Notes: generated from the letters alone by a model not told the origin. DNA of 64,000 nucleotides from an uncultured Gammaproteobacteria bacterium (GCA_964436385.1 CAYTCO010000003.1:5342-69341), one strand, 5' to 3'. Shown: positions 16,489-63,939, counted from the first letter of the stretch. Translations and numbers: made by a program.

Positions 16489-16500
16489 ATGCTCGCTCTA

Positions 16501-18396: not shown

Positions 18397-18801
18397 GCTT
18401 ACTGATTTGATTCAATAAGCAAGGGCTGAAAAATTTACAATTCTTTTTAAGTAGGGGAAGTATCTACAAGAGAATCGTAATTAACATAATTATATCAAAT
18501 TTGAGGCTAAAAATCAATCCCCAAAATATTTTATACTTGACTTGCCTCAAAAATTGCCCTGCTTTTTGAATGCAAATTGGAGAAGTAATTAATTTTTGAT
18601 GTATAATATTTGTGTATTTCTGAGTCGGAAAAGTAATTAGTATATGAGGCTAGTATCTTTCTTGGTTCATGAGTCCCCGCTTTTTTACGTCAGAAAAATT
18701 AAAAAGCCGAGGCTCGACCGAACGGGCGGCCCCGCAGTTCTACGACAAAAGAACTAAACATCTTGACAACTAGACTTAATTTGTTATAACATTGTTATAT
18801 T

Positions 18802-21389: not shown

Positions 21390-22955
21390 GTGAACAAGAA
21401 TTTATTGACAGGAATTCTGCTCTTCCTTTTTTCAATTACCCTTAGCCTTTACAATTTAACAGCGTCTGGACGTTGGACTGATGAATTTTTCTACGTTAGT
21501 AAGGGGCATCACACAATTGAGCTTTTGAAAAAGGGCCTTGTAACTCACCCCTATTTTTTAGTTGAGGGCGCAGACCACCCATTAACTGCAGTATACGTAT
21601 ATGGTTTGGCCTCTTATCTTGATTTAACATACATAGATCACGCGCATATTGTTCCCGAAGTGGGACTTTATCAGCCTCACTTCGATTACGATTTGTTTTT
21701 TACAAGATTAATAGCCGTTGTTGTTTCTGCCCTCAGTGTGTTGTTAACCTATATCTTTTGCTTGAGGTTCTTCTCTTATTTTGTTGCCGTAGCATCCTCA
21801 AGTATTCTTATGACACTTCCACATTTCTTGGGATATTCCCAAAAAGTAAGTCTTGAGAGTTGGTGCGTGCTTACTTTTTCACTTGCCGTTGTATTTTGTT
21901 TTGAGTACTTAAGAAGCAAAAAATTAATATACGCAATATTAATAGGTATTTTTTCTGGAGTGACGTTAACGGTCAAGCAATCAAATATTTTAATTTTCCC
22001 ATTTCTAGTGCTTACCTTTTCCTACTACAAATATTTCTTGAAAGATAAAAATCTTTCTTATAAAAGCGTATTTGTCGTGGCATTAACAACGATTATCACA
22101 ATTTTTATTACTTATCCTATGCCATTTTTAAATCCCCAAACTTTCTGGCACACAACATATGACGCTTGGTTTGTTAATGGCGGTAAAATTCCAGAATTAA
22201 TTTTTGGAAAAATGATCGGTGCCCCCATTGTGTATTACTTTATTGCAATCTCTATAACAACGCCATTAATTATTTTGATTTTATTGCTTACAGGAGGATT
22301 TGAGATAATAAGAACTAAGAGAAAACCCCTTTATATAACTTTACTAATTTGGTTCGTCGTTCCATTTTTCATGATGTTTTTTGCTGCTCGCCAACACATG
22401 GTGAGATACATTATTCAGGTCTATGTCCCGATGGCTATAATTTCAGCGATAGGGCTTAAAGCTATTGCCCCTATTTTTATTAAAGACAAAAGATTCCATC
22501 TCTTAATTCTCGTTCCAGTAGTGGTTTATTCGATGGTTATTATTTTTCAAACAACTCCATATTATCTAACTTACTACAACGAGTTAATAGGGGGAACAAA
22601 GAGGGTATACAGTGAAAAACTTTTTTTGCTCGGTTGGTTTAGTGAGGGCTTAAAAAGCGTTTCAAATTATATTAAGAATAATGTTACGCCAGGAAGCAGG
22701 ATTGGATACGCAGTTAACGCAGGATTTGGTGCGGTTGATCAGATTCCGGGGTACACGCATCTAAGATATGACAAAAATTTAGAATATGATTATGTAGTTG
22801 TGACTGTATTTGATGTAACACGGGGAGGGTTTGATGAAAAAACTCTTCTTCCCAAATACAAAGCAGTTTATGAGGAGAAAGGAAATGGGCTTGTAGTTGC
22901 CAGAATTTATAAAAACAGATCAAAAGTTGGACCCGATACGAAGCTCCTTTATTAA
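21390..22955 (+). CDS. GT-C fold membrane glycosyltransferase (ArnT/PMT-like, GT39/GT83-like)
   Basis: It has about 12 TM helices and a DE-containing first extracytoplasmic loop (RWTDEFFYVSKGH). It is adjacent to a GT2 polyprenyl-phosphate-sugar-synthase-like gene. Confidence 0.5.
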   Translation: MNKNLLTGILLFLFSITLSLYNLTASGRWTDEFFYVSKGHHTIELLKKGLVTHPYFLVEGADHPLTAVYVYGLASYLDLTYIDHAHIVPEVGLYQPHFDYDLFFTRLIAVVVSALSVLLTYIFCLRFFSYFVAVASSSILMTLPHFLGYSQKVSLESWCVLTFSLAVVFCFEYLRSKKLIYAILIGIFSGVTLTVKQSNILIFPFLVLTFSYYKYFLKDKNLSYKSVFVVALTTIITIFITYPMPFLNPQTFWHTTYDAWFVNGGKIPELIFGKMIGAPIVYYFIAISITTPLIILILLLTGGFEIIRTKRKPLYITLLIWFVVPFFMMFFAARQHMVRYIIQVYVPMAIISAIGLKAIAPIFIKDKRFHLLILVPVVVYSMVIIFQTTPYYLTYYNELIGGTKRVYSEKLFLLGWFSEGLKSVSNYIKNNVTPGSRIGYAVNAGFGAVDQIPGYTHLRYDKNLEYDYVVVTVFDVTRGGFDEKTLLPKYKAVYEEKGNGLVVARIYKNRSKVGPDTKLLY

Positions 22956-23603
22956 TAGTTTTACAAATTTAATGCCGGTTGGAATTGAATTTGCAGTGCT
23001 CATGCCTCCTATCCTGTCTCCTTCCTTAGTTGGAATTTCATAAATTTTTCCACCAAGTTTTAGGGTTCTTATTGTCATTTGAAATTCTATTGCAAAACCC
23101 TCTTCATCAAGATGGAGCTTTTTAAAAAACTCTTTATTAATTATTCGATAGCCGTTAATAGTGTCGGTGACCTTCCCTCCCCAGAACATTCTCACCGCAA
23201 TTGAGAATGCTTCATTTGCCCATTTTCTAAATTTTAAAACCTTATCATCTTCCTCATTTCTTGAACCTTTCATGAATCGAGAGGCAATAACAAGATCGTG
23301 ATCTTTTATTTTTGGCAATAGTTTTGCTATATCCTTCGGATCTTCATTTCCATCAGGACTGAAAAATATAATAAATTCTCCCCTTGCCTTCTTTGCTGCT
23401 ATTTTAAAAGCGTTACCGCGTCCAGCAACGGTTTGACTTATCACAGGTATCTTATGTTTCTTTAAAAATTCGACAGTTCCGTCAGTTGATTTGTAGTCTA
23501 CTGCAAAAACTTCATCAACAAGTTTTAGGGGAATATTTTTAAGTACTTCTTTAACTCCAGAAATTTCGTTTCGGGTTAAGATGACAAGTGTTGTTCGTAC
23601 CAT
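22920..23603 (-). CDS. Family 2 glycosyltransferase (polyprenyl-phosphate sugar synthase-like, ArnC/DPM1-like)
   Basis: It has a GT2 N-terminus (LVILTRNE...AVDYKSTDGT) and DxD-like FFSPDGNED. The protein is 227 aa. Confidence 0.6.
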   Translation of the reverse strand: MVRTTLVILTRNEISGVKEVLKNIPLKLVDEVFAVDYKSTDGTVEFLKKHKIPVISQTVAGRGNAFKIAAKKARGEFIIFFSPDGNEDPKDIAKLLPKIKDHDLVIASRFMKGSRNEEDDKVLKFRKWANEAFSIAVRMFWGGKVTDTINGYRIINKEFFKKLHLDEEGFAIEFQMTIRTLKLGGKIYEIPTKEGDRIGGMSTANSIPTGIKFVKLLIKELRIGSNF

Positions 23604-36794: not shown

Positions 36795-37697
36795 ATGAAA
36801 AAAGCATTTGTCGCAACAGTGTTAAATGAGCAGGATCAAGCAAAACTATTCATAGAATCTCTTCTATCACAATCAGTTAAGCCAGATGAAATAGTTATTG
36901 TAGATGCTGGTTCAAATGATGACACAGTGAGCATCATCAATAACTTATTTGAAAAGCAAAGAAATAAAAAGTATAGAGTCCTTACAAAACGAGGCAACAG
37001 ATCTATCGGTAGAAATTGCGGAATAAAAAATGCAAATTCCGAAGTGATAGCTGTTTCCGATTTTGGTTGTGTACTCGATAAGAATTGGTTTGAGAAAATT
37101 ACTAAGCCATTGCAAAATACTAAAAACGATGTTGTTGCAGGGTATTACAGACCCCTTACGTCAAATGTATTTGAAAAGTCACTGTCTACCTATACGTGTT
37201 TTCCAGAAGACAAAATAACAAAGGACTTTCTGCCATCTTCTAGGTCAATTTCATTTAGGAAGGAGGTTTGGAAAAAAGTTGGTGGATATCCTGAGAGATT
37301 AAATACCTGCGAAGATTTAGTCTTTGCAGTAAATTTAAAAAAAGCAGGTTTTAACTTTGTTGTTGAAAAGAAAGCGATCGTTCTCTGGTCTCAAAAGAAA
37401 AATATCAATGAAGCATTCTGGCAACTATATGGATACGCTTTGGGAGATGGTCAGGCTAGGCATATTAGATCTCAAACTCCATTGCTTTATGCTAGATACT
37501 TATTTGCCTTAGTCTTATTAATCATGGGTTATATAAATTTATTATTTATACTCTTCTTCTTGTATTTATTGTGGGCCATTATTAAAAATTATAAGTATGT
37601 AAGAGAAATTCAGGCATTAATATTCCTACCCTTACTTCAATTGATCGCCGACATTGCAGTTTTGTTGGGTACAACCATTGGTCTACTAAGAAGATAA
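36795..37697 (+). CDS. Family 2 glycosyltransferase with C-terminal TM segments
   Basis: It has a GT2 N-terminus (VATVLNEQD...IVIVDAGSNDDT) and two C-terminal TM helices. Confidence 0.6.
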   Translation: MKKAFVATVLNEQDQAKLFIESLLSQSVKPDEIVIVDAGSNDDTVSIINNLFEKQRNKKYRVLTKRGNRSIGRNCGIKNANSEVIAVSDFGCVLDKNWFEKITKPLQNTKNDVVAGYYRPLTSNVFEKSLSTYTCFPEDKITKDFLPSSRSISFRKEVWKKVGGYPERLNTCEDLVFAVNLKKAGFNFVVEKKAIVLWSQKKNINEAFWQLYGYALGDGQARHIRSQTPLLYARYLFALVLLIMGYINLLFILFFLYLLWAIIKNYKYVREIQALIFLPLLQLIADIAVLLGTTIGLLRR

Positions 37698-39161
37698 TTC
37701 TCCCTTTTTCACAGTCTTCTTTACAAGTTTTAGAATAAGCATGAAAGCATCCGGGGAAATAGCAACCACAAGTAATGTATAGGTTGCTGTCACAATCAAA
37801 AGTTTTAAAACAAAGAATACGAAGCTGCTTGGCATGAATACATTTACGAAGTGGGAGATTAAAAATGTAACTCCAAAGATGATTAAATTTTTAACTGTAA
37901 TTCCAAGAAAGTTAACGTATACTTTTTCTTTATGACAAATAAATATGTATGTCACAAAAAGTAAAAGATTGCTGATAAAAAATCCGATTGAAATGCCTGT
38001 AAAACCGTATTTAAGAAGTAATAAATAAGAAATTATTATTTCAATAATTGTTATTGTTGTTCCGAAGAATAATAGTTGTTTTATTTTCCCAATTGCAAGA
38101 AGAGCTTGACCTAGCAAGCCAACACCATTAAGAAAGAAGATGCTTCCCACATACCAATACAATGCGGGTAGAGCAGGAAGCCATTTGTCGTTAAGAAAAA
38201 AATGTATAAAGTCGCGACCAAAGATTATCGTAATTGGAATAATTAAAGTTGCGGTTACGCTTATCAGCTTAAAAGCTTGTTCAAGCGAAGTTTTAATATT
38301 AGGTTTATTGTCCTGGAGTCTTGAGAATGACGAAAATGAAACACGTCCTAGATTATCAATAAATACTCTTGGTAACGATGAGATATTAAAACTCCAATCT
38401 AATAGACCAGTGTCACTAAAGGGAAGTCTTGTGCCCCCAATGACTGGAATTACAGCACTTCGAAATATAGTCAGAAAGAATCCTAATTGAAAAAACTTTC
38501 CAATATCTAGAAAATCCCTTATGCTCTTCAAATTGAAAGTTAATCTGGGTAACCAAGGTTTAAAAGAAAACGTAACTAGAGTTTCGGCAATAGTCATTGC
38601 TACAACTGCCCAAATAAAACTCCAGATATTAAATCCAAATGAGGCTAGCAGAATTGCAACGAAGTAGTAAGAGACCATTCCAGATAGATCAATTATTGCT
38701 ATATCGCGGTACCTGAGGTTTCGTTCAAGAACCGCACTAATTATTGTTTGAAGTGGTTTTATGAGAAGCGTTAGAGATAGAATTCTAAGCATTAAGATTT
38801 CCGCTTGCCCAAATTGATGATAAACCAAGTGAATAAATTGGGAAGATATATTGAGAACTACAATTGCTAAAAGCGTGAGGATCAATTTAGTGAAGAATAT
38901 TGTCGATAATTGTAGTTGGGTTGGTTCTTTCTTTCTTTGAATTATTGTAAGACTAAGTCCTATATCTGTGAATATCTCAATTGTCGAAAGCAAAAAAGAA
39001 AGAATCGCAAAGACTCCAAAAGACGCGGGTGACAGTAATTTAACCAGAAGTAATTGACCAGAAATTGCAATCACTTTCATTCCCATCTCTCTTGTTATTA
39101 GCTGTATGGTTCCATGGATGGTCTTCTCTTTAATTTCTTTTATTTTCCGCTTAGATTTCAT
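37686..39161 (-). CDS. MOP/Wzx-like oligosaccharide flippase
   Basis: It has about 12-14 TM helices and the polysaccharide biosynthesis protein architecture. It lies in the glycan locus. Confidence 0.5.
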   Translation of the reverse strand: MKSKRKIKEIKEKTIHGTIQLITREMGMKVIAISGQLLLVKLLSPASFGVFAILSFLLSTIEIFTDIGLSLTIIQRKKEPTQLQLSTIFFTKLILTLLAIVVLNISSQFIHLVYHQFGQAEILMLRILSLTLLIKPLQTIISAVLERNLRYRDIAIIDLSGMVSYYFVAILLASFGFNIWSFIWAVVAMTIAETLVTFSFKPWLPRLTFNLKSIRDFLDIGKFFQLGFFLTIFRSAVIPVIGGTRLPFSDTGLLDWSFNISSLPRVFIDNLGRVSFSSFSRLQDNKPNIKTSLEQAFKLISVTATLIIPITIIFGRDFIHFFLNDKWLPALPALYWYVGSIFFLNGVGLLGQALLAIGKIKQLLFFGTTITIIEIIISYLLLLKYGFTGISIGFFISNLLLFVTYIFICHKEKVYVNFLGITVKNLIIFGVTFLISHFVNVFMPSSFVFFVLKLLIVTATYTLLVVAISPDAFMLILKLVKKTVKKGELSS

Positions 39162-39832: not shown

Positions 39833-39834
39833 AT

Positions 39835-44587: not shown

Positions 44588-44605
44588 ATTTTTTTTTACA
44601 GCTAT

Positions 44606-45559: not shown

Positions 45560-45624
45560 TTAGATTAGGGGCAGAAATTTGTCGATTAATTATAGCATGA
45601 GAAATTTCATACAAATTAAAGTAT

Positions 45625-46668
45625 GTGATATTATATCCTGACCTTATGAGAACCTTAATTACCGGTGGAGCTGGCTTCATTGGAAGCCACGTAGCGAATT
45701 ATTTAGTAGAAAATACAAAGCACAAGGTGTATGTGGTTGACGACCTTTCTGGTGGTTTTTTGCATAATCTTCCTAATGGGGTTGTTTTTCAAAAACTTGA
45801 TCTTCGCGACAGAAACCAAACCGAAAAATTTATAAATAAAGTAAAACCTCATATTATTTATCATCTCGCGGCAGATGCAACTGAGGGTAGAAGTCAATTT
45901 ACTCCTATTTCAGCAACTGAAAGAAACCAGCTTGCGTATATGTATCTTCTTATTCCAGCTATAAAGAATGGACTAAAAAAAATGATTTTAACGAGTTCAA
46001 TGAGTGTATATGGAAGTCAAAAGGCTCCATTCTCAGAGGATATGAAAAGGCTACCTGATGACATATATGGTATCTCAAAAGCAGCAATGGAGCAGACTAC
46101 CGAGGTATTATCAAAAGTTTATGGATTTGATTATGTAATAATAAGGCCGCACAACGTATACGGTCCAAAACAAAATCTCACAGACCCTTATAGAAATGTA
46201 ATTGGTATTTTTATTAACTGCCTGTTAAATAACAAGAATTACTACATCTATGGAAATGGGAAACAAAAAAGAGCATTCACTTATATAGATGATTGTGCAC
46301 CCTATATTGCAAGAAGTGCATTTGAAAAAAAATGCATTAACCAGATTATTAATCTCGGTCCTTCTCAGGCGTATACAATCAACGAAGTTTCAAAACTTGT
46401 TCTTAAAAATTTCTTTGAGAAAGAGATTCCTGCCAAATTAAAACCGAAATACTTAGATTTAAGACCTCAAGAAGTAGTGGAGGCATTTTGTACAATTGAT
46501 AAGGCAAAAAAGCTATTGGGATATGAAACGAGTTATAGTCTTTCGCAAGGGGTAGAAGAAATGGTTAAGTGGGCAAAAGAACTAGGACCTCAGAAATTCA
46601 AATATTTAGACAACCTAGAACTTGAGAGTAATAAGCTGCCCATAACATGGAAGAGGAAGCTTATTTAG
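45625..46668 (+). CDS. NAD-dependent nucleotide-sugar 4,6-dehydratase/epimerase (SDR)
   Basis: It has LITGGAGFIGSHV. The protein is 347 aa. Confidence 0.7.
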   Translation: MILYPDLMRTLITGGAGFIGSHVANYLVENTKHKVYVVDDLSGGFLHNLPNGVVFQKLDLRDRNQTEKFINKVKPHIIYHLAADATEGRSQFTPISATERNQLAYMYLLIPAIKNGLKKMILTSSMSVYGSQKAPFSEDMKRLPDDIYGISKAAMEQTTEVLSKVYGFDYVIIRPHNVYGPKQNLTDPYRNVIGIFINCLLNNKNYYIYGNGKQKRAFTYIDDCAPYIARSAFEKKCINQIINLGPSQAYTINEVSKLVLKNFFEKEIPAKLKPKYLDLRPQEVVEAFCTIDKAKKLLGYETSYSLSQGVEEMVKWAKELGPQKFKYLDNLELESNKLPITWKRKLI

Positions 46669-46669
46669 T

Positions 46670-47563
46670 ATGCGAGAGAATATATACTGCATTGTCCTTA
46701 ATTGGAACGGCAAACATTTCCTAAAAAATTGTCTTGAATCAATACTTTCCTCTGATTACAAAAATATAGGGATTGTTCTTGTTGATAATGCATCAACAGA
46801 CGGTTCCGTAGCTTTTGTTGAGAAGAATTATAAAAGAGTAAAAATAATCGCAAACAAATCCAATTTAGGATGGACAGGGGGAAACAATAAAGGCGTTAAG
46901 TATGCCTTGAAGCAAAAAGCTGATGCAATATTTGTTTTAAATAACGACACAGTTATAACAAAAAACTGTATAAGCCAATTGTCTAAAATACTTTTTTCAA
47001 AGGAATCGATTGGAATCGTTGGCCCTAAAATATATTTGCTTGATGAAAAAGGAAAAAAAACCAAAACAATTTCTTTTGCAGGTGGTAGATTTACCAAAAA
47101 CAGATACTTTGGTGTTCATGTAGGAAATAATAAGAAAGATACGGGTAAGTTTGAAAAAGTGAAGGAATCTGAATATATAACCGGAGCAGCAATTCTTATA
47201 AAAAGGAAAGTATTTGAAAAAATTGGATTCTTTGATGACAAGTACTTTATTTATTATGATGAATCAGATTTTTGCTTGAGAGCAAGAAAAACTGGATTTT
47301 CTATTTACATTCAACCAAAGGCTGTGGCTTATCATGCATTTTCTGGAACTGTTGAAGTTAATTCTCCATTCCAGAAGTATTACACAACAAGAAACCACTA
47401 TCTCTTTGTGGAAAGAAATGCACCTATGAGAGTTAAGTTGAGGGAGTGGTTGAGGACCCCAAAGACTGCTTATGAGTTTATTAAAAAAGACTTCGACAGA
47501 TATTCACTTCTCGGGATTCGCGATTATTATTTGAGAAACTTTGGAAAAAGGAGGTATTGGTAA
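46670..47563 (+). CDS. Family 2 glycosyltransferase
   Basis: It has the GT2 pattern (CIVLNWNG...VLVDNASTDGS) and a DxD region. Confidence 0.65.
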   Translation: MRENIYCIVLNWNGKHFLKNCLESILSSDYKNIGIVLVDNASTDGSVAFVEKNYKRVKIIANKSNLGWTGGNNKGVKYALKQKADAIFVLNNDTVITKNCISQLSKILFSKESIGIVGPKIYLLDEKGKKTKTISFAGGRFTKNRYFGVHVGNNKKDTGKFEKVKESEYITGAAILIKRKVFEKIGFFDDKYFIYYDESDFCLRARKTGFSIYIQPKAVAYHAFSGTVEVNSPFQKYYTTRNHYLFVERNAPMRVKLREWLRTPKTAYEFIKKDFDRYSLLGIRDYYLRNFGKRRYW

Positions 47564-48666
47564 TGAAAATTGCCGTATTTCACGAATTGCATAATGGTGG
47601 AGCAAAAAGAGCAGTAACTGAAATCGGAAGACATCTCAAAGAGACTGATGTGGTCGATCTTTATGTCTCTGGCCAAAAACCAGATAAGGAGGAAAAAGCA
47701 TCGTTTAGAAGAGTTTACAGTTTCCCTTTTGCGTCAAAAGTATGGAGACGGGGAGACTGGATTGCAAAACTTTATAAAGATACTTACGAGTATGTAAAGC
47801 TTTTGAATCATCACAAAAAAATTGCCGAGAAACTCAATAAGGGAAATTACGATTTAGTGTTCATACATCCTTCGCAGTTTACTCAAGCTCCTTTTATTTT
47901 GCTGTTCGTAAAAGCAACAAGGATATATTACTGCCAGGAACCATTAAGAATAGTTTATGACAAAGCATTAAATGATTTATCCCATATCCATGGTGCAAGA
48001 AAGGCTTATGAGTTAGCAGCAAGAACAATTAGACGAGTTATTGATAGGGTGAATTTAAGTCGAGCAGATTACATATTTTGCAATTCAGAATTTTCAAAAG
48101 ATTCAATAAATAGGGCATACGGAGTTAAGGCTAGGGTAAAATATTTAGGAGTTGACCATAAATTTTTCAAACCTAGCAAAGCAGCAAAAAAGGTAGATGT
48201 TCTTTACTTTGGATCACACGAAAGAATTGAGATGTACGAATTGTTCAAAAATGCAATTAAGGGATTGCCGAAAAGAATTAAGATACATGAGCATTTTCCC
48301 GGGCACAATTGGGTTTCTGACGAGTCACTTCGCAAAATGTATCAGGAATCAAAATTGGTCATTACACTGCATAAGAATGAGCCATTTGGGCTTATCCCGA
48401 TTGAGGCTGCTTCGTGTGGAACAATTACAATTGCCCTTGATAGCGGAGGCCATAAAGAGTCAATAATTGATGGAAAAACTGGTTACTTGATAGGGCAAGA
48501 TCAACATGCCTTATCTAATAAATTAATGTCAGTTTTGGCAAATGATTCGAGAAGAAAACTTATGGAAAGCCAGGCAAGAGCAAATGTAGCTGAGCGGTGG
48601 ACATGGGAAGTAAGTGTCAAAAACATTCGTAAAGAATTATTAAAAATTCATGAAAAAAAGAATTAA
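47557..48666 (+). CDS. Family 4 glycosyltransferase
   Basis: It has the GT4 C-terminal motif EPFGLIPIEAASCGTITIA. Confidence 0.65.
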   Translation: MVMKIAVFHELHNGGAKRAVTEIGRHLKETDVVDLYVSGQKPDKEEKASFRRVYSFPFASKVWRRGDWIAKLYKDTYEYVKLLNHHKKIAEKLNKGNYDLVFIHPSQFTQAPFILLFVKATRIYYCQEPLRIVYDKALNDLSHIHGARKAYELAARTIRRVIDRVNLSRADYIFCNSEFSKDSINRAYGVKARVKYLGVDHKFFKPSKAAKKVDVLYFGSHERIEMYELFKNAIKGLPKRIKIHEHFPGHNWVSDESLRKMYQESKLVITLHKNEPFGLIPIEAASCGTITIALDSGGHKESIIDGKTGYLIGQDQHALSNKLMSVLANDSRRKLMESQARANVAERWTWEVSVKNIRKELLKIHEKKN

Positions 48667-50851
48667 GCTATCCATAATTTATGTTTATTTCAATACTCCA
48701 AAGGAGATTGTAGATTCTATCGCCTCATTAAAAGAAGCAACATCCATAAATAATTTTGAAGTAATTGTTGTTAATAATAACTCCCCAAAAAATCTTCCAA
48801 AAATGCCCCATTTAAAAAAGATAAAAGTAATTAAGAGCAAAAGAAATTTGGGATTTGGGGCAGGTTGCAACTTAGGAGCAAAGAAAGCCTCAGGTAAATA
48901 TTTGTTATTCATAAATCCAGACACTATATTTAAAAAAAGCTCGATAGATATTCTTTTAAAAAAAATTTCTTCAAACAAGAATATAGGAGTTGTAGGACCA
49001 AAAATGGTCTCAGAAGCCGGAAAGACTCTGCCCACTACAAGCACATTCATAAGCCCATTTAATGCCTTATTTAAGTTTTCTTTCCTTGGAAAATTTTTAA
49101 CTAAAAACGTAGTTACAAAAGGACAAACCGATGTTTTAAGTGGAGCGTGTCTTCTTATAAAGAAAAACGTTTTCGAAGAGGTAGAAGGCTTTGATGAGAA
49201 TTTCTTTATGTATTTTGAAGAACAAGATTTATGTAAGAGAATTGCTGATCTTGGATACAAAATTGTTTATGAGCCCAAATCTCAAATCACTCATTTTATC
49301 GGTAGAAGCTTAAGTAATAAAAAAACTATAGAGGAATACTTCCGAACTAGTAGATATAAATACTCGAAGAAACACTTCGGAAACAAGAAAGCAGCCATTA
49401 TTGAATTCATCTTAAGAAATCTGAGCATAACAAATGTTGCCATTTTTGTAATTTTCTGTTTGTCACTTTTTCTAAATACATTCCGTATGTCTGAGTTAAT
49501 GCTTCTGATTGGGGACAGCGCTCGTGACTTTATTGCTGGGCAAGCAATGATTGAAACCGGCAAGATTCCACTGGTTGGAATTCCTTCATCTGTTACATGG
49601 CTTCATCAAGGCCCAATTTCAGTTTGGCTTATTGGACTTTCGTTTTTATTCTCAAACACAAACCCTGTCGCTCCAGGTTATTTATTTGGCTTCCTAGGTG
49701 CTATAAGTACTGCTTTAGTTTATCTTCTTGGAAAAACGTATTTCAACAAGAGAGTAGGTGTACTGTCTGCTTTGCTTTTTGCCACAGCACCAATGATTAC
49801 AGTAAATAGCAGAATGCCCTATCACACTTCACTGATTCCGCTTTTTACGCTTATTTTCTTTCTGGTCTTGCATAAATCTATTAGTAAAACGAAATTACTT
49901 CCGTTGATGTTCTTTTTTCTCGGTATTCTGCTTCAGGTAGAACTATCAAACATTGTTGTATTTGGATTGGTTTTTATCACATTACGTATTTTGAAAATTC
50001 ATGCCTCTAGATTAGAAATTGTTAAATCAATTATTGGATTTATAACTGGAATCTCTCCCTTCATTTTGTATGATCTAACTCGCGGTTTTTCGTATTCTTT
50101 ATTCCCCCTATGGATTCTTAACCGTTTGCGTCTTTTTGCTGGTATCGGAACTGACAATGCTCCAACTTCATCAGGTTTGCCAAATGCAATTAATACTTTT
50201 TATCATCAGATTTCGGCTTCAATTTTTCCGAACATTCCTTACTTTGGACTGGTTATTTTTATGGTCTCACTAATTATTTTGGCATGGTTTACTTATTCCA
50301 AAAGAAGCAAAGGCAATCTATTACTATTACTTTGGATTACTGTTCCATCTATTGCGTTTTTATTGCATGCGTCACCAGGAACGGCTTACTTTGCACTGTT
50401 GTATCCTGCCATTTCATTAACCTTTGGTTTCTTTTTAGATAAACTAACATCAAAAACACAATTGTCATATCTTTTTATCGCGGCTATAGTTGCATCTAAC
50501 GTATTTTTATTGATTAAGAATGATTTTTACGTAACTAGCAAAAATGGACCACATCTTATGCCTCCTTCTGGTTATTCTTTTGGAAATACGTGGGTTTTTG
50601 TTAATGAAACATCACATGCGATTGTCGGAAACGCGGCCGGAAAAGAATTTAAAATAACACCACTAGGTTTTCTTAATGAGTACAAAACCAGTATGGATCC
50701 ATATAAATTTCTTATAACAAGAGCGGGAGGAAAATTAAACGATAAAGCTAAAATCAACTATTTAATTACTGTTGAGGGCATAACAAAGGACAAATCTAAA
50801 ATTATATACTCAAATTTTCAAGACCAAGTTGAAAGGTATGAATCTAAATAA
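48650..50851 (+). CDS. Fusion protein: N-terminal GT2 glycosyltransferase + C-terminal polytopic GT-C-like domain
   Basis: Residues 1-250 form a GT2 (IIYVYFNTPKE...VVNNNSP, DxD). Residues about 260-733 contain more than 10 TM helices. Total length is 733 aa. Confidence 0.5.
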   Translation: MKKRIKLSIIYVYFNTPKEIVDSIASLKEATSINNFEVIVVNNNSPKNLPKMPHLKKIKVIKSKRNLGFGAGCNLGAKKASGKYLLFINPDTIFKKSSIDILLKKISSNKNIGVVGPKMVSEAGKTLPTTSTFISPFNALFKFSFLGKFLTKNVVTKGQTDVLSGACLLIKKNVFEEVEGFDENFFMYFEEQDLCKRIADLGYKIVYEPKSQITHFIGRSLSNKKTIEEYFRTSRYKYSKKHFGNKKAAIIEFILRNLSITNVAIFVIFCLSLFLNTFRMSELMLLIGDSARDFIAGQAMIETGKIPLVGIPSSVTWLHQGPISVWLIGLSFLFSNTNPVAPGYLFGFLGAISTALVYLLGKTYFNKRVGVLSALLFATAPMITVNSRMPYHTSLIPLFTLIFFLVLHKSISKTKLLPLMFFFLGILLQVELSNIVVFGLVFITLRILKIHASRLEIVKSIIGFITGISPFILYDLTRGFSYSLFPLWILNRLRLFAGIGTDNAPTSSGLPNAINTFYHQISASIFPNIPYFGLVIFMVSLIILAWFTYSKRSKGNLLLLLWITVPSIAFLLHASPGTAYFALLYPAISLTFGFFLDKLTSKTQLSYLFIAAIVASNVFLLIKNDFYVTSKNGPHLMPPSGYSFGNTWVFVNETSHAIVGNAAGKEFKITPLGFLNEYKTSMDPYKFLITRAGGKLNDKAKINYLITVEGITKDKSKIIYSNFQDQVERYESK

Positions 50852-52646
50852 ATTTCTTATAGCAACCTTTGTTACATTCGGATTTATTTCCTCGCTAGTC
50901 CTATTGGCTACATCAAAAGCATCCCATTTTCTTCCTGGACTAACACTTAATGCTATTTTTCTTTGCTCAATTTTTTATAAATCCAAGAATAATCTTAAGA
51001 AAATTAGGCTTACGAAACCAAGCTTAGGCAGTCTGTTTAAAAAAACTAATACAATAATTCGTTCAAATTTCTTAGTTTTTCTGCTCATAAGTATTTATGT
51101 CTCTCTTGGTATGGTTTCATTAACTTGGGGTTCGCCAAACATTAGTCATCCGTTTCCTTACCATATGGATGAATGGCACCAACTCCAATCTCTAAGGTCT
51201 TTGTATGAGAATGGATCAAATAACGTTGATGGAGCAGCTTATGGAACATTTTTGAATTATATTTTAGCTGGTTTTTATGTAGCTTTTTTTACGCTTCTAG
51301 GCATTATTAACCCACAGGCTATTTCAAGTTCTGTAGACAATCTTTCTTCGCAGACTCTAATTTTTGGAATACTGAGAATGAGTGTATTGCTTTATGGAAT
51401 TGGCGCATTAACTATTTTTAGTTATATCTGCAAAAAATATTTTAGTGTTGATAACAGGATTGGAGTTTTTTTGTTTATTTCAGTTCCGGTTTTTCTAATA
51501 ATAAGTAATTATTTTAAGTATGACATTACATTAATATTCTTTATCTTGTTAGCATTTTTGTTTACCTTAAGATTTGGAGAAAAACCAAATATGGAGAGCT
51601 ATATTCTTATGTGCATAAGCTGCACAGCTTCATTTTCAATCAAAATGAGCTCAATTGCACTTCTTCCTTTGCCATTTATAGCCCTGGCCTTATATATTTC
51701 AGATAACAAGGAGAGAATAAGATACGTTCTCATAGGACTTGGTGTAATAGCCGCGACTACAGTTACTGTTGGAATGCCAGACATTTTTTCAAAGATCACT
51801 GAATACAAACTTCTTTTGTCATCAAACACTGATAGCATTTACAAATTCAATGAACTCTATAAATTAAAAGAACCATTTGCTTTATATGCTGTACTTCGCA
51901 TGTTCCCAACGCTTTTTGGGTACGGGTTATTCATTTTATCGATAGTTTCTATCCCGGCAGTTCTGATACTATCTATAAAAAATAGTAAATTAAGAAAAAA
52001 AATTGTTATTCTTGTAGCAATTCTTGTCCTTTTTGCAATAACTCTCTTGCAATTAAAGTGGCATATGGGTGGGAATAGGTCTTTGGTATTAGTTCCGTTT
52101 CTTATAATTTCATCTCTTTTATTTCTTAAACATTTTGTAAAAAACAAATCGATATACCTACTGCTAACAGTTTTTTTGGTTGTAATGCAAACTGTCCAGA
52201 TCATCGGTTTTTTGCAAATCAAATTTGACAAGCCAATTCAAGAAAGAGCCTCGACAGTTATTAACTCTAAGATAGGGAGAGGAAGCACAATTGGCTTGGA
52301 GAACATTCCAATATATCAACTGCTACCTGATTTAATTGTTAAAGAATTCTACTTCAATCAATATAAAATGGGAGACAAAAATAAATATAAATACAAAATA
52401 ATCACTGAAAACGATGAATCTTTCCCACGTTATGTTATTTTAAGCAATGCATATATAGCACAAAATCACTTTAACTTTTCCTCCAAAGAGAATATTGCCA
52501 AGAAACTCCATAATCTTGGTTATGGTAAATTTTTTGAAGTTAAAACAAATCTACACATATTTTCTTTGTTCGGAGACGAATTTGACTACTATTTCTCTGG
52601 ACTACTGGCTATGCCATATGATATAACGGTTTATGAAAAAAAATAA
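50829..52646 (+). CDS. GT-C fold membrane glycosyltransferase (PMT/ArnT-like)
   Basis: It is polytopic and the first loop contains HPFPYHMDEWHQ (DE motif). It is 605 aa. Confidence 0.45.
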   Translation: MKGMNLNKFLIATFVTFGFISSLVLLATSKASHFLPGLTLNAIFLCSIFYKSKNNLKKIRLTKPSLGSLFKKTNTIIRSNFLVFLLISIYVSLGMVSLTWGSPNISHPFPYHMDEWHQLQSLRSLYENGSNNVDGAAYGTFLNYILAGFYVAFFTLLGIINPQAISSSVDNLSSQTLIFGILRMSVLLYGIGALTIFSYICKKYFSVDNRIGVFLFISVPVFLIISNYFKYDITLIFFILLAFLFTLRFGEKPNMESYILMCISCTASFSIKMSSIALLPLPFIALALYISDNKERIRYVLIGLGVIAATTVTVGMPDIFSKITEYKLLLSSNTDSIYKFNELYKLKEPFALYAVLRMFPTLFGYGLFILSIVSIPAVLILSIKNSKLRKKIVILVAILVLFAITLLQLKWHMGGNRSLVLVPFLIISSLLFLKHFVKNKSIYLLLTVFLVVMQTVQIIGFLQIKFDKPIQERASTVINSKIGRGSTIGLENIPIYQLLPDLIVKEFYFNQYKMGDKNKYKYKIITENDESFPRYVILSNAYIAQNHFNFSSKENIAKKLHNLGYGKFFEVKTNLHIFSLFGDEFDYYFSGLLAMPYDITVYEKK

Positions 52647-53694
52647 GACTCAGAATAATCTTAATTTAAAAGGCAAAAGCGTACTTATAACGGGTGGGAC
52701 TGGCTCATTTGGCAACTCAGTAACTAAAAGACTTCTTGAACTCAATCCTCGGCAGATTATCATTTTCAGCAGGGACGAAAAAAAACAGTATGACATGAGA
52801 AATAAGTTTGATGATAACTCAAGGCTTCGATTTGTTATTGGGGATGTGAGGGATAGAAGTAGTATCGACAAAGTCATGAAGGGAGTAAATTATGTTTTTC
52901 ATGCTGCTGCGTTAAAGCAGGTTCCTACGTGTGAATTTTTTCCCCTTGAAGCTATTAGAACCAATGCTATTGGTGCAGAAAATGTTATTAGAAGTGCAAT
53001 TGAAAACAAGGTTGAATCTGTTGTGGTTTTAAGCACGGATAAAGCGGTTTATCCGATTAACGTAATCGGTATGACCAAGGCTCTAATGGAAAAAATAATG
53101 ATTTCGGAGGCAAAGAATTTGATATCAGCAAAATCTAAAACTTTGCTTTGTGGAGTTAGATACGGAAACGTGCTTTACACAAGGGGATCTGTAATTCCAT
53201 ATTTTATCGGGTTGATAAAGCAGAACAAGAAACTTCCAGTTACACAATTTCAGATGACAAGATTTCTTCTTCCTCTTGACGATGCTGTCGGACTTGTACT
53301 TTTTGCGCTTTCGAAAGGTAAAAGTGGGAGTATGTATATTAAAAAATCTCCTGCTTGCACGCTGGAGGTGTTGGCTCAAGCTTTGTGTGAGTTATTTAAT
53401 CATGAAAAAGGATACTACGAAGTAGGTATAAGAGCTGGTGAAAAGACTCACGAAACATTGGTTGCACAAGAAGAATCAGTTAGAGCAAAGGATTTAGGAG
53501 ATTATTATCAGATTCCTCCTGAAAGCCAAGGGCTAGACTATGGAAGATATTTTTCCAGAGGCGTAAAGCCGGGGAAACAGATTGCTCCTTACACTTCCGA
53601 GAACACAAAAAGGTTAAATGTTGTGCAGGTAAAGAAAATATTACTATCAATACCTCAAGTTCAGAAAGAACTTAAGGCTATCTCAAAAAAGTAG
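52633..53694 (+). CDS. UDP-GlcNAc 4,6-dehydratase (CapD/CapE/PseB/FlaA1-like)
   Basis: It has KSVLITGGTGSFGNSV and ...TKALMEK..., the typical CapD-like short form of about 350 aa. Confidence 0.7.
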   Translation: MKKNKTQNNLNLKGKSVLITGGTGSFGNSVTKRLLELNPRQIIIFSRDEKKQYDMRNKFDDNSRLRFVIGDVRDRSSIDKVMKGVNYVFHAAALKQVPTCEFFPLEAIRTNAIGAENVIRSAIENKVESVVVLSTDKAVYPINVIGMTKALMEKIMISEAKNLISAKSKTLLCGVRYGNVLYTRGSVIPYFIGLIKQNKKLPVTQFQMTRFLLPLDDAVGLVLFALSKGKSGSMYIKKSPACTLEVLAQALCELFNHEKGYYEVGIRAGEKTHETLVAQEESVRAKDLGDYYQIPPESQGLDYGRYFSRGVKPGKQIAPYTSENTKRLNVVQVKKILLSIPQVQKELKAISKK

Positions 53695-54409
53695 CCATCA
53701 TCGCGTACTTAAAGTAATCATAGAAAACTTTCGGTTTGTAGGAAAAATGAGAAGCAGAATTTTTTCTTGATGTAAGAGTGTAGGGAATTTGACTAAAAGT
53801 TGATCCATTTTTCTTTAAGATATACATTTCTTCAAGAATTATTGAAAAGTTATTCTCCTTAAACTTCATGCCCCTTAGTTTTGATGTTTTTGCCATTCGA
53901 AAACCATTAGTGCAATCAGTTATTCCTACATTAAAAAACGCACTAGCAACGAAATTGCCGATACTTGAGACAACTCTTCTGTATTCAGGAACATTAACTA
54001 CTTTTGAACCCTTCATGTAGCGGCTTGCCTTAACTACATCAAAACCCTTTTTAGATTCCTCGATAAATTTATGTATGTATTTAGGGTCATTTGTTAGATC
54101 TGAATCCATAGTCAGGCAGTATTCAAAATTTAAACGGATTGCTTCTCGGATTCCAGTTTGAATAGCGCCACCGTAACCTTTGTTTGTTTTGTGATGTACA
54201 ACTTTTAAATATTTTTTTTCTTTCGTTCTCCACCTCTCAAGGATGTTATATGTTTTGTCACGGCTTCCGTCGTTAATCGCAATTAGCACAATTCTATCTT
54301 TTTCTTTTTTTATAAAACTTAGAACTTTTCCAATGCATTTATCTGCGACTTTTTCTTCGTTATACATTGGAATAATTACTGCGAGGAAATTCTTAGATTT
54401 TAATACCAT
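53678..54409 (-). CDS. Family 2 glycosyltransferase (polyprenyl-phosphate sugar synthase-like)
   Basis: It has a GT2 N-terminus (AVIIPMYNEEK...AINDGSRDKT) and is 243 aa. Confidence 0.6.
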   Translation of the reverse strand: MVLKSKNFLAVIIPMYNEEKVADKCIGKVLSFIKKEKDRIVLIAINDGSRDKTYNILERWRTKEKKYLKVVHHKTNKGYGGAIQTGIREAIRLNFEYCLTMDSDLTNDPKYIHKFIEESKKGFDVVKASRYMKGSKVVNVPEYRRVVSSIGNFVASAFFNVGITDCTNGFRMAKTSKLRGMKFKENNFSIILEEMYILKKNGSTFSQIPYTLTSRKNSASHFSYKPKVFYDYFKYAMMATFLR

Positions 54410-61553: not shown

Positions 61554-62294
61554 ATGGAAGAAAAATTGTCCGTAATAGTTCTAACTCATAATGATGAATT
61601 AAGGATTGTTGACTGCCTCGAGAATCTGACTTTTGCTGATGAGCTAATAATAATTGACGATAACTCCGAAGACAGGACCGTTGAGCTCTGCAAACAGTTT
61701 ACAAGAAATATTCACGTAAGACCGTTAAACTCGAATTTTTCAAATCAAAGAAATTTTGCGCTTAACCAAGCAAAGTCAAAATGGGTTCTTTTTATTGATT
61801 CAGATGAGCTTGTAAGTCCGGATCTTGCAAAAGAAATTGGTAACGTTATCAAGAAAAAAGAATTTGCTGGATATTTTCTTAAAAGGTATGATTTTATGTG
61901 GGGTAAAAAACTCAAATATGGGGAAGTAGGAAGTGTGAGGTTTATGAGGCTTGCAAGAAAGGAAAGCGGTAAATGGTACGGTAAGGTACACGAAACCTGG
62001 CGGGTTGTCGGCAGAACTTCCGAGCTTAACAATAGCTTGAAACACGTACCGCACTCAACAGTCTTTGATTTTGTGAAGGATATAGATGAGTACTCATCTC
62101 TTCGTTCTGAAGAGCAACGGGAGAAGGGCAAGAAGGCTTCAGCTTTTCAAATCGTAGCCTATCCCACAGCTAAGTTCATTCAAAACTATATTTTTAGACG
62201 TGGATATAAAGACGGCGTTGCCGGTTTTGTTTATGCAATGCTTATGAGTTTTCACTCCTTTCTCGTACGTGGTAAATTATTTTTGGAAAAGTAG
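61554..62294 (+). CDS. Family 2 glycosyltransferase
   Basis: It has LSVIVLTHNDE...IIIDDNSEDRT and a DxD region. Confidence 0.65.
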   Translation: MEEKLSVIVLTHNDELRIVDCLENLTFADELIIIDDNSEDRTVELCKQFTRNIHVRPLNSNFSNQRNFALNQAKSKWVLFIDSDELVSPDLAKEIGNVIKKKEFAGYFLKRYDFMWGKKLKYGEVGSVRFMRLARKESGKWYGKVHETWRVVGRTSELNNSLKHVPHSTVFDFVKDIDEYSSLRSEEQREKGKKASAFQIVAYPTAKFIQNYIFRRGYKDGVAGFVYAMLMSFHSFLVRGKLFLEK

Positions 62295-62340: not shown

Positions 62341-63939
62341 GTGGAGTTTTTTGGTGCTCGTATTGTATATCGCGCACTTACTTTGCAGGAGGGGGATATG
62401 CTTGCTTTCTTAGGTCTTACGATAGGGTTTTATTCTTACTCTATTTTAATTATTGGGCTATTTGGTTTTCTTAGTTTCTACCCGGTTCTTTTTCTGACAT
62501 TTTTGTTCGCCCTGCCAGTACTTTACAGATTGAAATTCTACTTCCCTAGATTGACAAAATTCCAGTCTTTACTTCTTTTAATTATTCTATTAACAGCACT
62601 TGTCAATTTGGTTGGGGCGTTGGGTCCTGAGATTGCTTTCGATGCTCTTTGGTATCACTTAACAATTCCAAGGGTCTTTTTGATGAATGAGTCGGTTTTC
62701 TTTATTGAAGGTGGACTTTTCTATTACTCCTTGATGCCAAAACTTACTGAAATGCTTTACACAGCAGCTCTTTTGCTTTCAGGTGAAATAACAGCAAAAC
62801 TAATTCATTTTTCTTTCGGTCTTCTTACCTGCGCTGCCCTTTACAAGTTAGCTCGTGAATTTGTTTCAAAAAATTGGGCTATTTTGGCAGTTATTGTGTT
62901 CTACTCCAATTTAGTTGTGGCATGGCTATCCATTACCTCATATGTTGATCTCTCACGTGCTTTTTTTGAGACATTGGCATTATTATTTATGGTTAGATCC
63001 CAAAGGAAGGAATCTGTTCGAGATCTATACTCAAGCGCTGTTTTTGTGGGGTTTGCCATTTGCTCAAAGCTGATTTCGGTTTTGTCTTTACCTATTTACG
63101 CCATCTTACTAATTAAGTACGATAAAAAACAATTATTCACATTTCTTACTTTAGCCACCATTACAGCGCTTCCATGGTTTTTAGTCTCACTTTTTTATAC
63201 TGGAAATCCGATATATCCTCTCTTTTCCATACATTCTCCAAAATTACTTCATATAGAAAATTTTGAGCTTGTTTCTATATTTAAAAACTTACTTCAAATA
63301 TTTCTCTTTGCACCCGATCCCTTGAGCCCAATTTATCTAATTATTGCACCGTTTGGGATTGCACTTCTAAAAGTTAAAAAGTTTAGGCTTGTAATCACTT
63401 ACTGCTTAGGATCAATTTTGCTTTGGTACATAGCAACCTTCAGTGGTTTATGGCACGCAACCGACCAAGCGGGTAGCGCGCGCTTTATGACTGCCTACTT
63501 GCCGGCATTAAGTGTTCTTGTGGTAGGTGCTATTAGCCTCACTAAATCAAAATACATTCAAAGGATATCTATCGGGGTAATAATTGTAATTTCTCTGATA
63601 ACTATTTGCTACAGGGGTATTGCAAATGCCAGATTTCTTCCTGTAATCTTGGGCGCCGAATCTAGGGAGGAGTTCCTTTTAGAAAATCTTAATTTTGATT
63701 TTGGCGATTTTTATGACGAAAATAAAAATATTCAAAACATTGTAGGAGACAAGAAAGTGCTTATTCAAGGAATACATAACCTTTACTACGTTGACTTCAA
63801 TTTCACACTTTCTGATTGGAAAGATAGTCATGAAGCGCTATATTTACTTATTCGGGAAGACCCAGCCTTGCCCTCAAACGAAAAAGCGAATTTTATTTAC
63901 TCAAATCAAAAAACTAATGTTAAACTGTACCGACTATGA
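62341..63939 (+). CDS. GT-C fold membrane glycosyltransferase (PMT_2/ArnT-like)
   Basis: It is polytopic over 532 aa, with Asp in the first loop (EIAFDALWYH). It follows a GT2 gene. Confidence 0.4.
   Translation: MEFFGARIVYRALTLQEGDMLAFLGLTIGFYSYSILIIGLFGFLSFYPVLFLTFLFALPVLYRLKFYFPRLTKFQSLLLLIILLTALVNLVGALGPEIAFDALWYHLTIPRVFLMNESVFFIEGGLFYYSLMPKLTEMLYTAALLLSGEITAKLIHFSFGLLTCAALYKLAREFVSKNWAILAVIVFYSNLVVAWLSITSYVDLSRAFFETLALLFMVRSQRKESVRDLYSSAVFVGFAICSKLISVLSLPIYAILLIKYDKKQLFTFLTLATITALPWFLVSLFYTGNPIYPLFSIHSPKLLHIENFELVSIFKNLLQIFLFAPDPLSPIYLIIAPFGIALLKVKKFRLVITYCLGSILLWYIATFSGLWHATDQAGSARFMTAYLPALSVLVVGAISLTKSKYIQRISIGVIIVISLITICYRGIANARFLPVILGAESREEFLLENLNFDFGDFYDENKNIQNIVGDKKVLIQGIHNLYYVDFNFTLSDWKDSHEALYLLIREDPALPSNEKANFIYSNQKTNVKLYRL

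Follow-up and report, generated by a model that had tools for sequence, protein, structure and literature searches.

A predicted bifunctional GT2::GT-C glycosyltransferase in a putative Wzx-dependent surface-glycan locus of a Microgenomatia-type bacterium

What could be gained by joining, in a single polypeptide, a glycosyltransferase that would face the cytoplasm to one that would act outside the membrane? The question is raised by an open reading frame (ORF) in the 64,000-nucleotide stretch of DNA analyzed here (CAYTCO010000003.1:5342-69341; hereafter the window, with positions counted from its first letter), which encodes a family 2 glycosyltransferase (GT2) fused to a polytopic GT-C membrane domain (ORF 48650-50851; Table 1). 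An earlier note on the window had proposed that this fusion physically couples the synthesis of a polyprenyl-phosphate-sugar donor to its transfer. Our analysis leads us elsewhere. We favor, with a probability of roughly 0.6, the reading that the fusion is a bifunctional membrane glycosyltransferase, combining an elongating GT2 with a transferring GT-C, in a Wzx-dependent surface-glycan assembly line of a Microgenomatia-type bacterium of the Candidate Phyla Radiation (CPR). The CPR, or Patescibacteria, are ultrasmall, mostly uncultured episymbionts, and their surface chemistry presumably serves attachment to a host.

The fusion protein and its membrane half

The reading frame is unbroken over 733 aa, and Pfam recognizes both domains. 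The GT2 model PF00535 matches residues 8-178 with 78.3 bits (cutoff, 23.3), with related GT2-like models reaching residue 232, whereas the PMT_2 model PF13231 matches residues 320-444 at a marginal 26.3-27.1 bits against a cutoff of 26.1. A copy with 98% identity and the same neighbors is present in two independent assemblies, and a database search returned 317 relatives, more than 100 of which are full length (722-771 aa), contain both domains, and share 32-98% identity with the fusion. The independent assemblies and the full-length homologs exclude a missed stop codon, which the earlier note had named as a possible flaw in its view, as well as an assembly artifact. The single protein it described is therefore genuine, and the ORFs it named were all found where it had placed them. 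Where relatives have named sources, these are Candidatus Levybacteria, Parcubacteria, and Patescibacteria. When GTDB species representatives were scanned, matches over the full length were confined, unspecific titles apart, to Levyi-, Gottesman-, and Chisholmbacteria, Microgenomates, and generic Patescibacteria bins, and Cyanobacteria, Chloroflexota, and other phyla matched the GT2 part only. The unspecific titles are those of the many third-party-annotation bins called “uncultured Gammaproteobacteria” in the same scan; they were not used for taxonomy, as they conflict with all specifically named relatives.

The AlphaFold2 (AF2) model of the full-length fusion has a predicted local distance difference test score (pLDDT) of 90.5 and a predicted template modeling (TM) score (pTM) of 0.87; for residues 245-733, the values are 93 and 0.92. 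When the GT-C half was compared with the Protein Data Bank (PDB) using Foldseek, ArnT ranked first (5f15, E = 1.4e-6; 5ezm, TM score 0.57/0.53), followed by AglB, PglB, STT3, ALG12 (TM score 0.60/0.61), ALG9, AftB, and Pmt4, so that the matches to GT-C folds span E values of 1e-6 to 1e-3 and TM scores of about 0.5-0.6. The unrelated transporter and receptor entries below rank 36 have TM scores of about 0.1. No Wzy or WaaL chain is among the best 50 matches listed, the protein has no Wzy_C Pfam match, and PMT_2 is matched in all 26 family members (best E, 1.1e-10). The fold search rules out a transporter or Wzy identity for the C-terminal domain, and the GT-C assignment of the earlier note stands. 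An oligosaccharyltransferase (OST) identity is likewise ruled out, since the WWD/WWDxG motif is absent from all 42 fusion-family sequences of our alignment A1; there is also no match to PF02516 (STT3). NCBIfam returned no ArnT match for the fusion, which places it outside the ArnT family proper (GT83). Judged by its modeled fold, the membrane half is an ArnT/PMT/OST-like GT-C enzyme, whose probable donor use we read from that fold alone, and its family is, in sequence comparisons, very divergent.

Hydropathy, lysine-plus-arginine (K+R) counts, and the model agree on an N-in topology with D289 outside. Residues 1-248 contain 44 K+R, and the first transmembrane helix (residues ~260-277) leads into a 60-residue outside loop that has only 2 K+R and the helices typical of a GT-C first loop. 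A cytoplasmic GT2 and an external acidic GT-C loop, as the earlier note had anticipated, are thus what the predicted topology gives. D289 is invariant in 45 sequences (A1 together with a second alignment, A2), and all 26 sequences of a more divergent set, split and stand-alone forms included, have D or E at its position. The outside-loop motif PLVGIPSSxxWLHQGP is invariant or nearly so, RMPYHT is present in about 90% of the fused forms, and E431 is also conserved. These patterns bear on whether the GT-C half could be catalytically dead, a mere membrane anchor for the GT2. The marginal PMT_2 score of the window protein and the lack of any solved GT-C detectable by sequence would suit such an anchor, but the acidic first-loop residue kept in 26 of 26 sequences, the conserved outside-loop motifs, and the abundance of stand-alone GT-C versions make it very improbable.

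The likeness to ArnT (GT83) and other PMT_2 GT-C-A enzymes extends over the fold, the N-in topology, the long first outside loop with its acidic residue, the C-terminal outside domain, and the PMT_2 match. The fusion differs from them in three respects: it lacks WWDxG, it has a cytoplasmic Leloir glycosyltransferase fused N-terminally, and its membrane-domain profile finds no solved structure in the PDB at E <=10. Because there is no sequence-level match to solved GT-Cs, D289 has no alignment-based equivalent among the catalytic residues of ArnT and PglB. Moreover, the acceptor would have to differ from that of ArnT, as CPR bacteria are without lipid A.

Subtype of the cytoplasmic GT2

If the fused GT2 were ArnC/DPM1/GtrB-like, it would charge polyprenyl phosphate with a sugar, giving a donor for the attached GT-C to use outside. 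This is the coupling that the earlier note had in mind. GT2-plus-GT-C pairing is a hallmark of three-component glycosylation systems, the predicted topology is compatible with such a division of labor, and the GT-A domain is followed by two helices and a transmembrane helix, as in GtrB and DPMS. In addition, DPMS (5mlz) still gives a 54-bit match to the N-terminal half of the fused GT2. The difficulty lies in the other half of the domain. We applied whole-domain homology, including the acceptor half, as the test for a polyprenyl-phosphate glycosyltransferase, and the fused GT2 fails it. Four independent comparisons, namely NCBIfam, a PDB profile search, a local hidden Markov model (HMM), and the acidic motif, concur on its subtype.

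Among the 13 NCBIfam models that match the fused GT2, the best are MftF, rhamnosyltransferase TIGR01556, TIGR04283, and PgaC, and none is ArnC (PRK10714), PpgS, AglJ, Dol-P-hexose transferase, or PgfS. The list includes AglG, a glucosyl-dolichyl-phosphate glucuronosyltransferase (E = 2e-6); AglG is an elongating enzyme that extends a Dol-P-linked sugar. TIGR01556 aligns over residues 30-221 with 59.1 bits against a curated cutoff of 200.55, which leaves the fusion outside that subfamily, and the MftF model TIGR03965 reaches 64 bits against a cutoff of 280. Foldseek gave GT-A enzymes throughout its top matches. In the PDB search with the family profile, chondroitin synthase K4CP (2z86, E = 4e-21, itself covering 5-226) and the ppGalNAc-Ts align over positions 5-228, whereas DPMS (5mlz), GtrB (5ekp), and ArnC align only at positions 3-113. 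In line with this, an HMM built locally from the fused GT2 gives 146 bits with the stand-alone rhamnosyltransferase-type GT2 at 46670, a match that covers positions 1-250 of the 255 in the profile, but 28-31 bits, in the N-terminal half only, with the window's two DPMS-type GT2s.

These two stand-alone enzymes, at 53678 and 22920, served as positive controls for the DPMS-type comparison, and they align to 5mlz over about 200-227 residues. For the 53678 GT2, the match to DPMS 5mlz covers residues 8-234 (E = 9.5e-21) and is followed by GtrB and ArnC; in NCBIfam it is matched by PgfS, PpgS, ArnC, AglJ, and Dol-P-hexose transferase alike. The 22920 GT2 matches AglJ (95.6 bits), Dol-P-hexose transferase, and PpgS, and its sole PDB match is 5mlz over residues 3-202. 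The small GT2 at 61554, by contrast, has no DPMS match in the PDB; its best is GmaR (22ao, E = 9.5e-14), followed by SunS. GmaR and SunS glycosylate proteins and peptides. The earlier note had taken every GT2 paired with a GT-C to be ArnC/DPM1-like, which is borne out for 53678 and 22920 over the full domain, but not for the fused GT2 or for 61554.

The motifs and the linker point in the same direction. Across the 42 sequences of A1, N89 and D91 of the DxD-equivalent motif are invariant and P90 is present in at least 90%; E190, E191, and D193 are also invariant. This second, acidic motif, FEExDLC, lines up with YDESDFC of the 46670 GT2, and in inverting GT2 enzymes such a motif provides the base for hydroxyl acceptors. 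The two linker helices (residues 224-243 and 245-257 by DSSP of the model), in which S234, R235, K241, and G244 are conserved, are homologous to the C terminus of the soluble 46670 GT2. Because the 46670 alignment spans them, they would be a heritage of a WbbL-like ancestor without transmembrane helices rather than a GtrB-type lipid-phosphate module. On the basis of these sequence comparisons, we place the fused GT2 in a WbbL/MftF/chondroitin-synthase-like group and not with ArnC or DPM1; with DPMS, GtrB, and ArnC, it has only the nucleotide-binding half in common. WbbL/GlfT1/MftF-like GT2s (TIGR01556, TIGR03965) act on lipid-linked or small-molecule hydroxyl acceptors. The fused GT2 resembles them in whole-domain homology, in the xPD and ExD motifs, and in the C-terminal helical region, but differs in scoring far below their cutoffs (59 versus 200 bits and 64 versus 280 bits) and in being covalently joined to a GT-C. 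This correction of subtype matters, since a donor-synthase label would misassign the logic of the pathway.

A processive synthase of the PgaC, BcsA, or HAS kind, in which the GT2 polymerizes and the polytopic domain serves as the export channel, would also be a GT2 fused to many transmembrane helices. NCBIfam PgaC matches residues 6-212 with 53.8 bits, and a conserved [ST]R[FY]x[YF] lies about 40 residues past the acidic motif, where synthases have QxxRW. However, QxxRW itself is absent from 42 of 42 members, and the fold of the transmembrane domain is that of a GT-C, in which outside loops carry invariant residues and a C-terminal domain lies outside. Two of these features, the missing QxxRW and the GT-C fold, exclude the protein from the processive synthases as a class. 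As described below, the GT2 is furthermore dispensable or replaceable by a GT4 in relatives, and a Wzx flippase is conserved. We regard a polymerizing export channel as hardly credible here.

Conserved partners and the favored scheme

We compared 26 related loci with full-length or split forms of the fusion. In 16 of them, the gene immediately upstream is an ortholog of the GT4 at 47557, which is found within 10 kb in 20; a Wzx flippase is likewise no more than 10 kb away in 20. The constant partners of the GT-C module are this flippase and the GT4. The GmaR-like 61554 GT2 has an ortholog immediately downstream of the fusion in 16 of the 26 loci, and next to it there are usually GT-Cs that are 21390- or 62341-type. 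A DPMS-type GT2 is present within 10 kb in 11 of the 26 and adjacent to the fusion in none.

The GT-C module does not depend on the GT2 to which it is fused in the window. Three loci (L038, L045, and L047) have the GT2 and the GT-C module as two adjoining genes, so that the fusion would have originated from a neighboring gene pair. In an 859-aa relative (P0086), an ortholog of the GT4 (51% identity) is joined directly to the fusion's GT-C module (47% identity), in a locus that is nearly syntenic with the window: Wzx, GT4::GT-C, GT-C, an FnlA-like gene, a 243-aa GT2, and a C-methyltransferase, with the 243-aa GT2 adjoining a 2-epimerase and an RmlD-like gene. Another relative (P0114) is a stand-alone GT-C module in a Wzx-GT4-GT-C-YfhO setting, with no GT2 between GT4 and GT-C. 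An exhaustive search with the GT-C profile returned 407 clusters at E <=1e-30, and the top 150 cluster representatives have an N-terminal extension of GT2 size in 52 cases and of GT4 size in 2, with 76 being free of any. Two proteins of about 1,100 aa (P0111 and P0115) carry a GT2 and two tandem GT-C modules.

Other combinations recur in the related loci. A PgaC/EpsD-like GT2 is fused to a 50829-type GT-C in L021 (1840-4422) and L027 (1578-4157), and a GT4 to a 21390-type GT-C in L016 (7330-9990). DPMS-type GT2s are found free, joined to a methyltransferase (L024, 14212-15834), with an unassigned C-terminal extension (L010), and directly following either the PgaC/EpsD-like GT2::GT-C (L027) or an 872-aa protein (L004), but none was fused to a recognized GT-C domain in the related loci examined. 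The independence of the GT-C module from the fused GT2 argues against the latter as its donor synthase. The coupling of donor synthesis to transfer within the fusion thus lacks support on three counts, in view of a GT2 that is not DPMS-type, of a GT-C that occurs without a GT2 or with a GT4 in its place, and of the lack of any DPMS::GT-C fusion in the loci examined, and we consider it unlikely.

A subtler alternative is that the GT-C transfers single sugars from a polyprenyl-phosphate-sugar made by the 53678 GT2, probably a 6-deoxy-L-HexNAc, while the fused GT2 carries out a chemically separate cytoplasmic step and the fusion serves only co-regulation or co-localization. ArnT, the best structural match, uses a monosaccharide donor, and synteny in the window, L005, and the P0086 locus puts the GT-C module together with a DPMS-type GT2 that has FnlA-like, 2-epimerase, and reductase neighbors. 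Yet a DPMS-type GT2 is within reach in only the 11 loci noted above, whereas Wzx and GT4 are near-constant; the 50829-type GT-C, which adjoins DPMS-type GT2s in L004 and L027, is at least as good a candidate for using such a donor; and the matches to OST and ALG enzymes are nearly as strong as those to ArnT. Single-sugar decoration is in our view possible but doubtful.

We therefore return to the favored reading, a bifunctional enzyme with an elongating GT2 and a transferring GT-C. In the cytoplasm, the fused GT2 would take one sugar from a nucleotide sugar and attach it to a hydroxyl of a polyprenyl-linked glycan under extension, with the GT4 (47557) and the paralogous GT2 (46670) acting alongside it in this extension. 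Wzx would flip the lipid-linked glycan, and either the fused GT-C, with D289 as its catalytic residue, or the 50829 GT-C would move a polyprenyl-linked sugar or short glycan to an outside acceptor, for which a wall polymer, a lipoglycan, and a protein are candidates. Stand-alone DPMS-type GT2s such as 53678 may make polyprenyl-phosphate-sugars as the primer, as donors for decoration, or both. In favor of such priming, there is no WecA/WbaP-type primer among the cluster ORFs of >=150 aa scanned, nor in six Pfam-annotated related loci, and within the window PF00953 is matched by MraY alone, which is part of the dcw cluster. By fusion, elongation in the cytoplasm would then be tied to the pathway's own transferase in the membrane. 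We lean toward en bloc use of the GT4/GT2 product by the GT-C, given how constantly Wzx and GT4 accompany the module. In this scheme, what we infer from the domain identities, topology, and conservation described above are the substrate classes, the succession of steps, and what the fusion is for.

Several considerations count against this scheme. The subtype of a GT2 predicts its acceptor class only statistically, and the fusion, at 59 versus 200.55 bits for TIGR01556, falls short of certification as a rhamnosyltransferase. In the order of its parts, a GT-A domain followed by two helices and a transmembrane helix, it superficially resembles GtrB or DPMS. Hypothetically, the donor of the GT-C could instead be a monosaccharide supplied by a DPMS-type GT2. 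As no primer enzyme is assigned, the lipid-linked acceptor of the fused GT2 is hypothetical as well. AF2 models, together with Foldseek TM scores of about 0.5-0.6, underlie the structural conclusions, and functions throughout the family are predicted ones.

Both domains are in known superfamilies, and the logic of polyprenyl-dependent extracytoplasmic glycosylation is already known. In archaeal Agl N-glycosylation (AglJ, AglG/I/E, AglR, AglB, and AglD/AglS), a monophosphate-lipid primer is extended by GT2s, flipped, and used by a GT-C. Our locus shares this overall scheme, the AglJ-like 22920 GT2, and the AglG-like match of the fused GT2; it differs in its bacterial host, in scores that are all below equivalog cutoffs, and in lacking an STT3-type OST motif. 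Mycobacterium tuberculosis Ppm1 is a DPMS-type polyprenyl-phosphate-mannose synthase fused to an Lnt-like membrane domain. It sets a precedent, within a GT-C-dependent pathway, for a polytopic membrane domain joined to a GT2 that is cytoplasmic, but the GT2 of our fusion is not DPMS-type and its membrane part is a GT-C. Like the GtrA/B/C, CsbB-YfhO, GacI/J/K/L, and lactococcal polysaccharide pellicle (PSP) systems, the locus has DPMS-type GT2s, elongating glycosyltransferases, Wzx, and several GT-Cs, and no WecA/WbaP primer in the cluster. The components are separate in those systems, whereas here an elongating GT2 or GT4 is fused to the GT-C and the DPMS-type enzyme stands apart. The closest mechanistic precedent is the PSP pathway (WpsA/B, WpsC-F, WpsG, WpsH, and WpsJ), in which a DPMS-type GT2 primes undecaprenyl phosphate (C55-P), cytoplasmic glycosyltransferases elongate, a Wzx-type protein exports, and GT-Cs polymerize and transfer (PMC10821137).

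Our literature searches gave nothing relevant on natural GT2::GT-C fusions or on GT-C biology in the CPR. Three features appear to be undescribed in the literature searched: a CPR-restricted GT-C lineage without a sequence-detectable solved relative, its recurrent fusion to elongating Leloir glycosyltransferases rather than donor synthases, and a conserved Wzx-GT4-GT-C core. This very divergent ArnT-like family is large by the cluster count given above, and about one third of its top-scoring cluster representatives join the GT-C module to a cytoplasmic glycosyltransferase. If both halves act on the same lipid-linked intermediate, the fusion would be a natural cross-membrane coupling of glycan synthesis to glycan transfer and a tractable single-protein target for reconstitution. 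A still broader proposal, which we put forward tentatively and as something to be doubted until strengthened, is that Microgenomatia-type CPR bacteria have repeatedly fused elongating Leloir glycosyltransferases (two GT2 subtypes and GT4) to highly divergent GT-Cs to yield single-polypeptide “build inside, transfer outside” enzymes. With Wzx, these might form a compact transmembrane line, primed on polyprenyl monophosphate by DPMS-type GT2s rather than by a WecA/WbaP phosphoglycosyl transferase, after the manner of the dolichol pathways of archaea and eukaryotes and of lactococcal PSP, in which fusion channels the finished glycan to its own transferase.

The glycan locus and remaining features of the window

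Table 1. Positions in the window of the fusion, its parts, and the glycan genes discussed
Feature	Position	Strand	Basis
GT2::GT-C fusion ORF, 733 aa	48650..50851	+	ATG start; stop codon 50849-50851
GT2 (GT-A) catalytic domain, residues 1-232, predicted cytoplasmic, WbbL/rhamnosyltransferase-like	48650..49345	+	Pfam, NCBIfam, PDB profile, local HMM
N89-P90-D91, DxD-equivalent metal/nucleotide-sugar motif	48914..48922	+	Alignment A1
E190-E191-Q-D193 (FEExDLC) acidic motif	49217..49228	+	Alignment A1
Two linker helices from GT-A domain to first transmembrane helix, residues ~224-257, conserved SRFxYFKK	49346..49420 (part after residue 232)	+	DSSP of AF2 model
Polytopic GT-C membrane domain, residues ~258-626, ~12-13 transmembrane helices	49421..50527	+	Hydropathy, DSSP, Foldseek, PMT_2
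D289 codon, putative GT-C catalytic residue, start of first extracytoplasmic loop	49514..49516	+	Conservation
C-terminal extracytoplasmic alpha/beta domain, residues ~627-733	50528..50848	+	Model secondary structure; follows last transmembrane helix
Stand-alone rhamnosyltransferase-type GT2, paralog of fused GT2	46670..47563	+	TIGR01556 98 bits; 146 bits vs fusion GT2 profile
GT4 (GT-B) glycosyltransferase, upstream partner	47557..48666	+	Pfam; 17-nt overlap with fusion start
Second GT-C (PMT_2), translationally coupled downstream	50829..52646	+	PMT_2 30.5 bits; 23-nt junction overlap
Wzx/MOP-family flippase	37686..39161	-	Pfam Polysacc_synt_3; NCBIfam MOP flippase, TuaB, O-glycosylation flippase
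Stand-alone DPMS/GtrB/ArnC-type GT2, likely polyprenyl-phosphate sugar synthase	53678..54409	-	PDB, NCBIfam
DPMS/AglJ-type GT2, convergent with 21390 GT-C	22920..23603	-	NCBIfam, PDB
GT-C-like polytopic protein	21390..22955	+	Pfam PMT_2 21.3 bits, below cutoff; WTDEFF first-loop motif
Small GT2, GmaR/SunS-like	61554..62294	+	PDB
GT-C (PMT_2) paired with 61554 GT2	62341..63939	+	PMT_2 33.4 bits

The fusion belongs to a same-strand run of genes (45625-53694) with junctions of +1, -7, -17, -23, and -14 nt, and these overlapping or nearly abutting junctions mark the run as a translationally coupled operon. It is set in a glycan locus that spans about 34-64 kb of the window, some 30 kb, and encodes GT4, GT2, and GT17 enzymes, several methyltransferases, short-chain dehydrogenase/reductase (SDR) epimerase/dehydratases, the MOP/Wzx flippase, and at least five GT-C-type membrane proteins. 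A glycan pathway thus takes up a large share of a small genome region. With several GT-Cs and two DPMS-type GT2s in the window, the earlier note's description of a locus for polyprenyl-dependent extracytoplasmic glycosylation is a fair one, and the unusual sugars suspected there are represented by two gene sets. The first, at 39185-42100(-), comprises an SIS isomerase, a GHMP kinase, an NTP-transferase, and a 195-aa phosphatase-like protein, a GmhA/HddA/HddC/GmhB-like set for NDP-heptose. Beside it, at 42106-46668, are two methyltransferases, a GT17 (43724-44587) of a family familiar mainly from eukaryotic GnT-III, and two SDR epimerase/dehydratases. Taken together, the genes suggest a glycan with a modified (deoxy or methylated) heptose. 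In the second set (52633-56428), the 53678 GT2 is enclosed by genes for an FnlA-like 4,6-dehydratase/5-epimerase (401 bits), a WecB-type 2-epimerase, and an RmlD-like reductase, and L005 and the P0086 locus have this arrangement too. What this GT2 puts on polyprenyl phosphate may accordingly be a 2-acetamido-2,6-dideoxy-L-hexose; we know of no described donor of this kind.

The earlier note had listed four GT-C genes. The window does hold several, although the 21390-22955 protein, whose orthologs adjoin fusions in relatives, scores under the PMT_2 cutoff. The acidic first-loop motifs expected of them are present: IGD289SARD in the fusion, HMDEWH in 50829, WTDEFF in 21390, and AFDALW in 62341. 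Compared with the GT-C profile of the fusion by hhalign, 21390 reaches a probability of 47%, 62341 of 20%, 50829 of 1%, and the 58052 protein described below of 0.2%. These links are weak, and the GT-C status of the other named proteins derives from PMT_2 and the motifs. The pairing of 61554 with 62341 holds as a conserved adjacency in relatives, but its GT2 is GmaR/SunS-like and not DPM1-like. This is the most conserved GT2/GT-C adjacency in the lineage, and in relatives of a “GDQGWFY” subfamily the pair lies immediately 3' of the fusion.

The product of 58052-59911(+) is a polytopic membrane protein of 619 aa, of which about 270 aa form a soluble domain at the C terminus. Neither Pfam nor NCBIfam gives a match for it, and no relation to the GT-C profile of the fusion is detectable. 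Its orthologs are kept near Wzx and GT-C genes in L005, L011, L021, L025, and L028, and it may be a polymerase or ligase, or a further divergent GT-C.

A search within the window for Ser/Thr/Pro-rich acceptors, which the earlier note had recommended, yielded one weak candidate. It is a 175-aa protein encoded at 14121-14648(-), whose signal peptide is clear and part of which is rich in Pro/Thr/Ser (TAPNPIAPTSVPQ, TPTSASTPKRTYYTNTPTEEPKPTLKP). It could be the kind of secreted protein that is open to O-glycosylation, but it has no Pfam match and no demonstrated link to the glycan cluster.

Scans of the window for tRNAs and Rfam families were empty. Its remaining genes fit a CPR bacterium with peptidoglycan: the dcw cluster includes Mur ligases, MurA, MraY, FtsW, MurG, FtsA, and FtsZ, and ParB and a signal peptidase are also encoded. 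Two FtsW/RodA (SEDS) paralogs are present, one in the dcw cluster and one beside an isoleucyl-tRNA-synthetase-like gene (6082-7221 and 30696-31778). After the dcw cluster come a nuclease of the OLD family (AAA_15 plus TOPRIM, 11622-13334) and, at 17329-18396, a tyrosine integrase. The region from 11622 to 19400, which has few long ORFs and a slightly lower GC content, is probably a small mobile or defense island.

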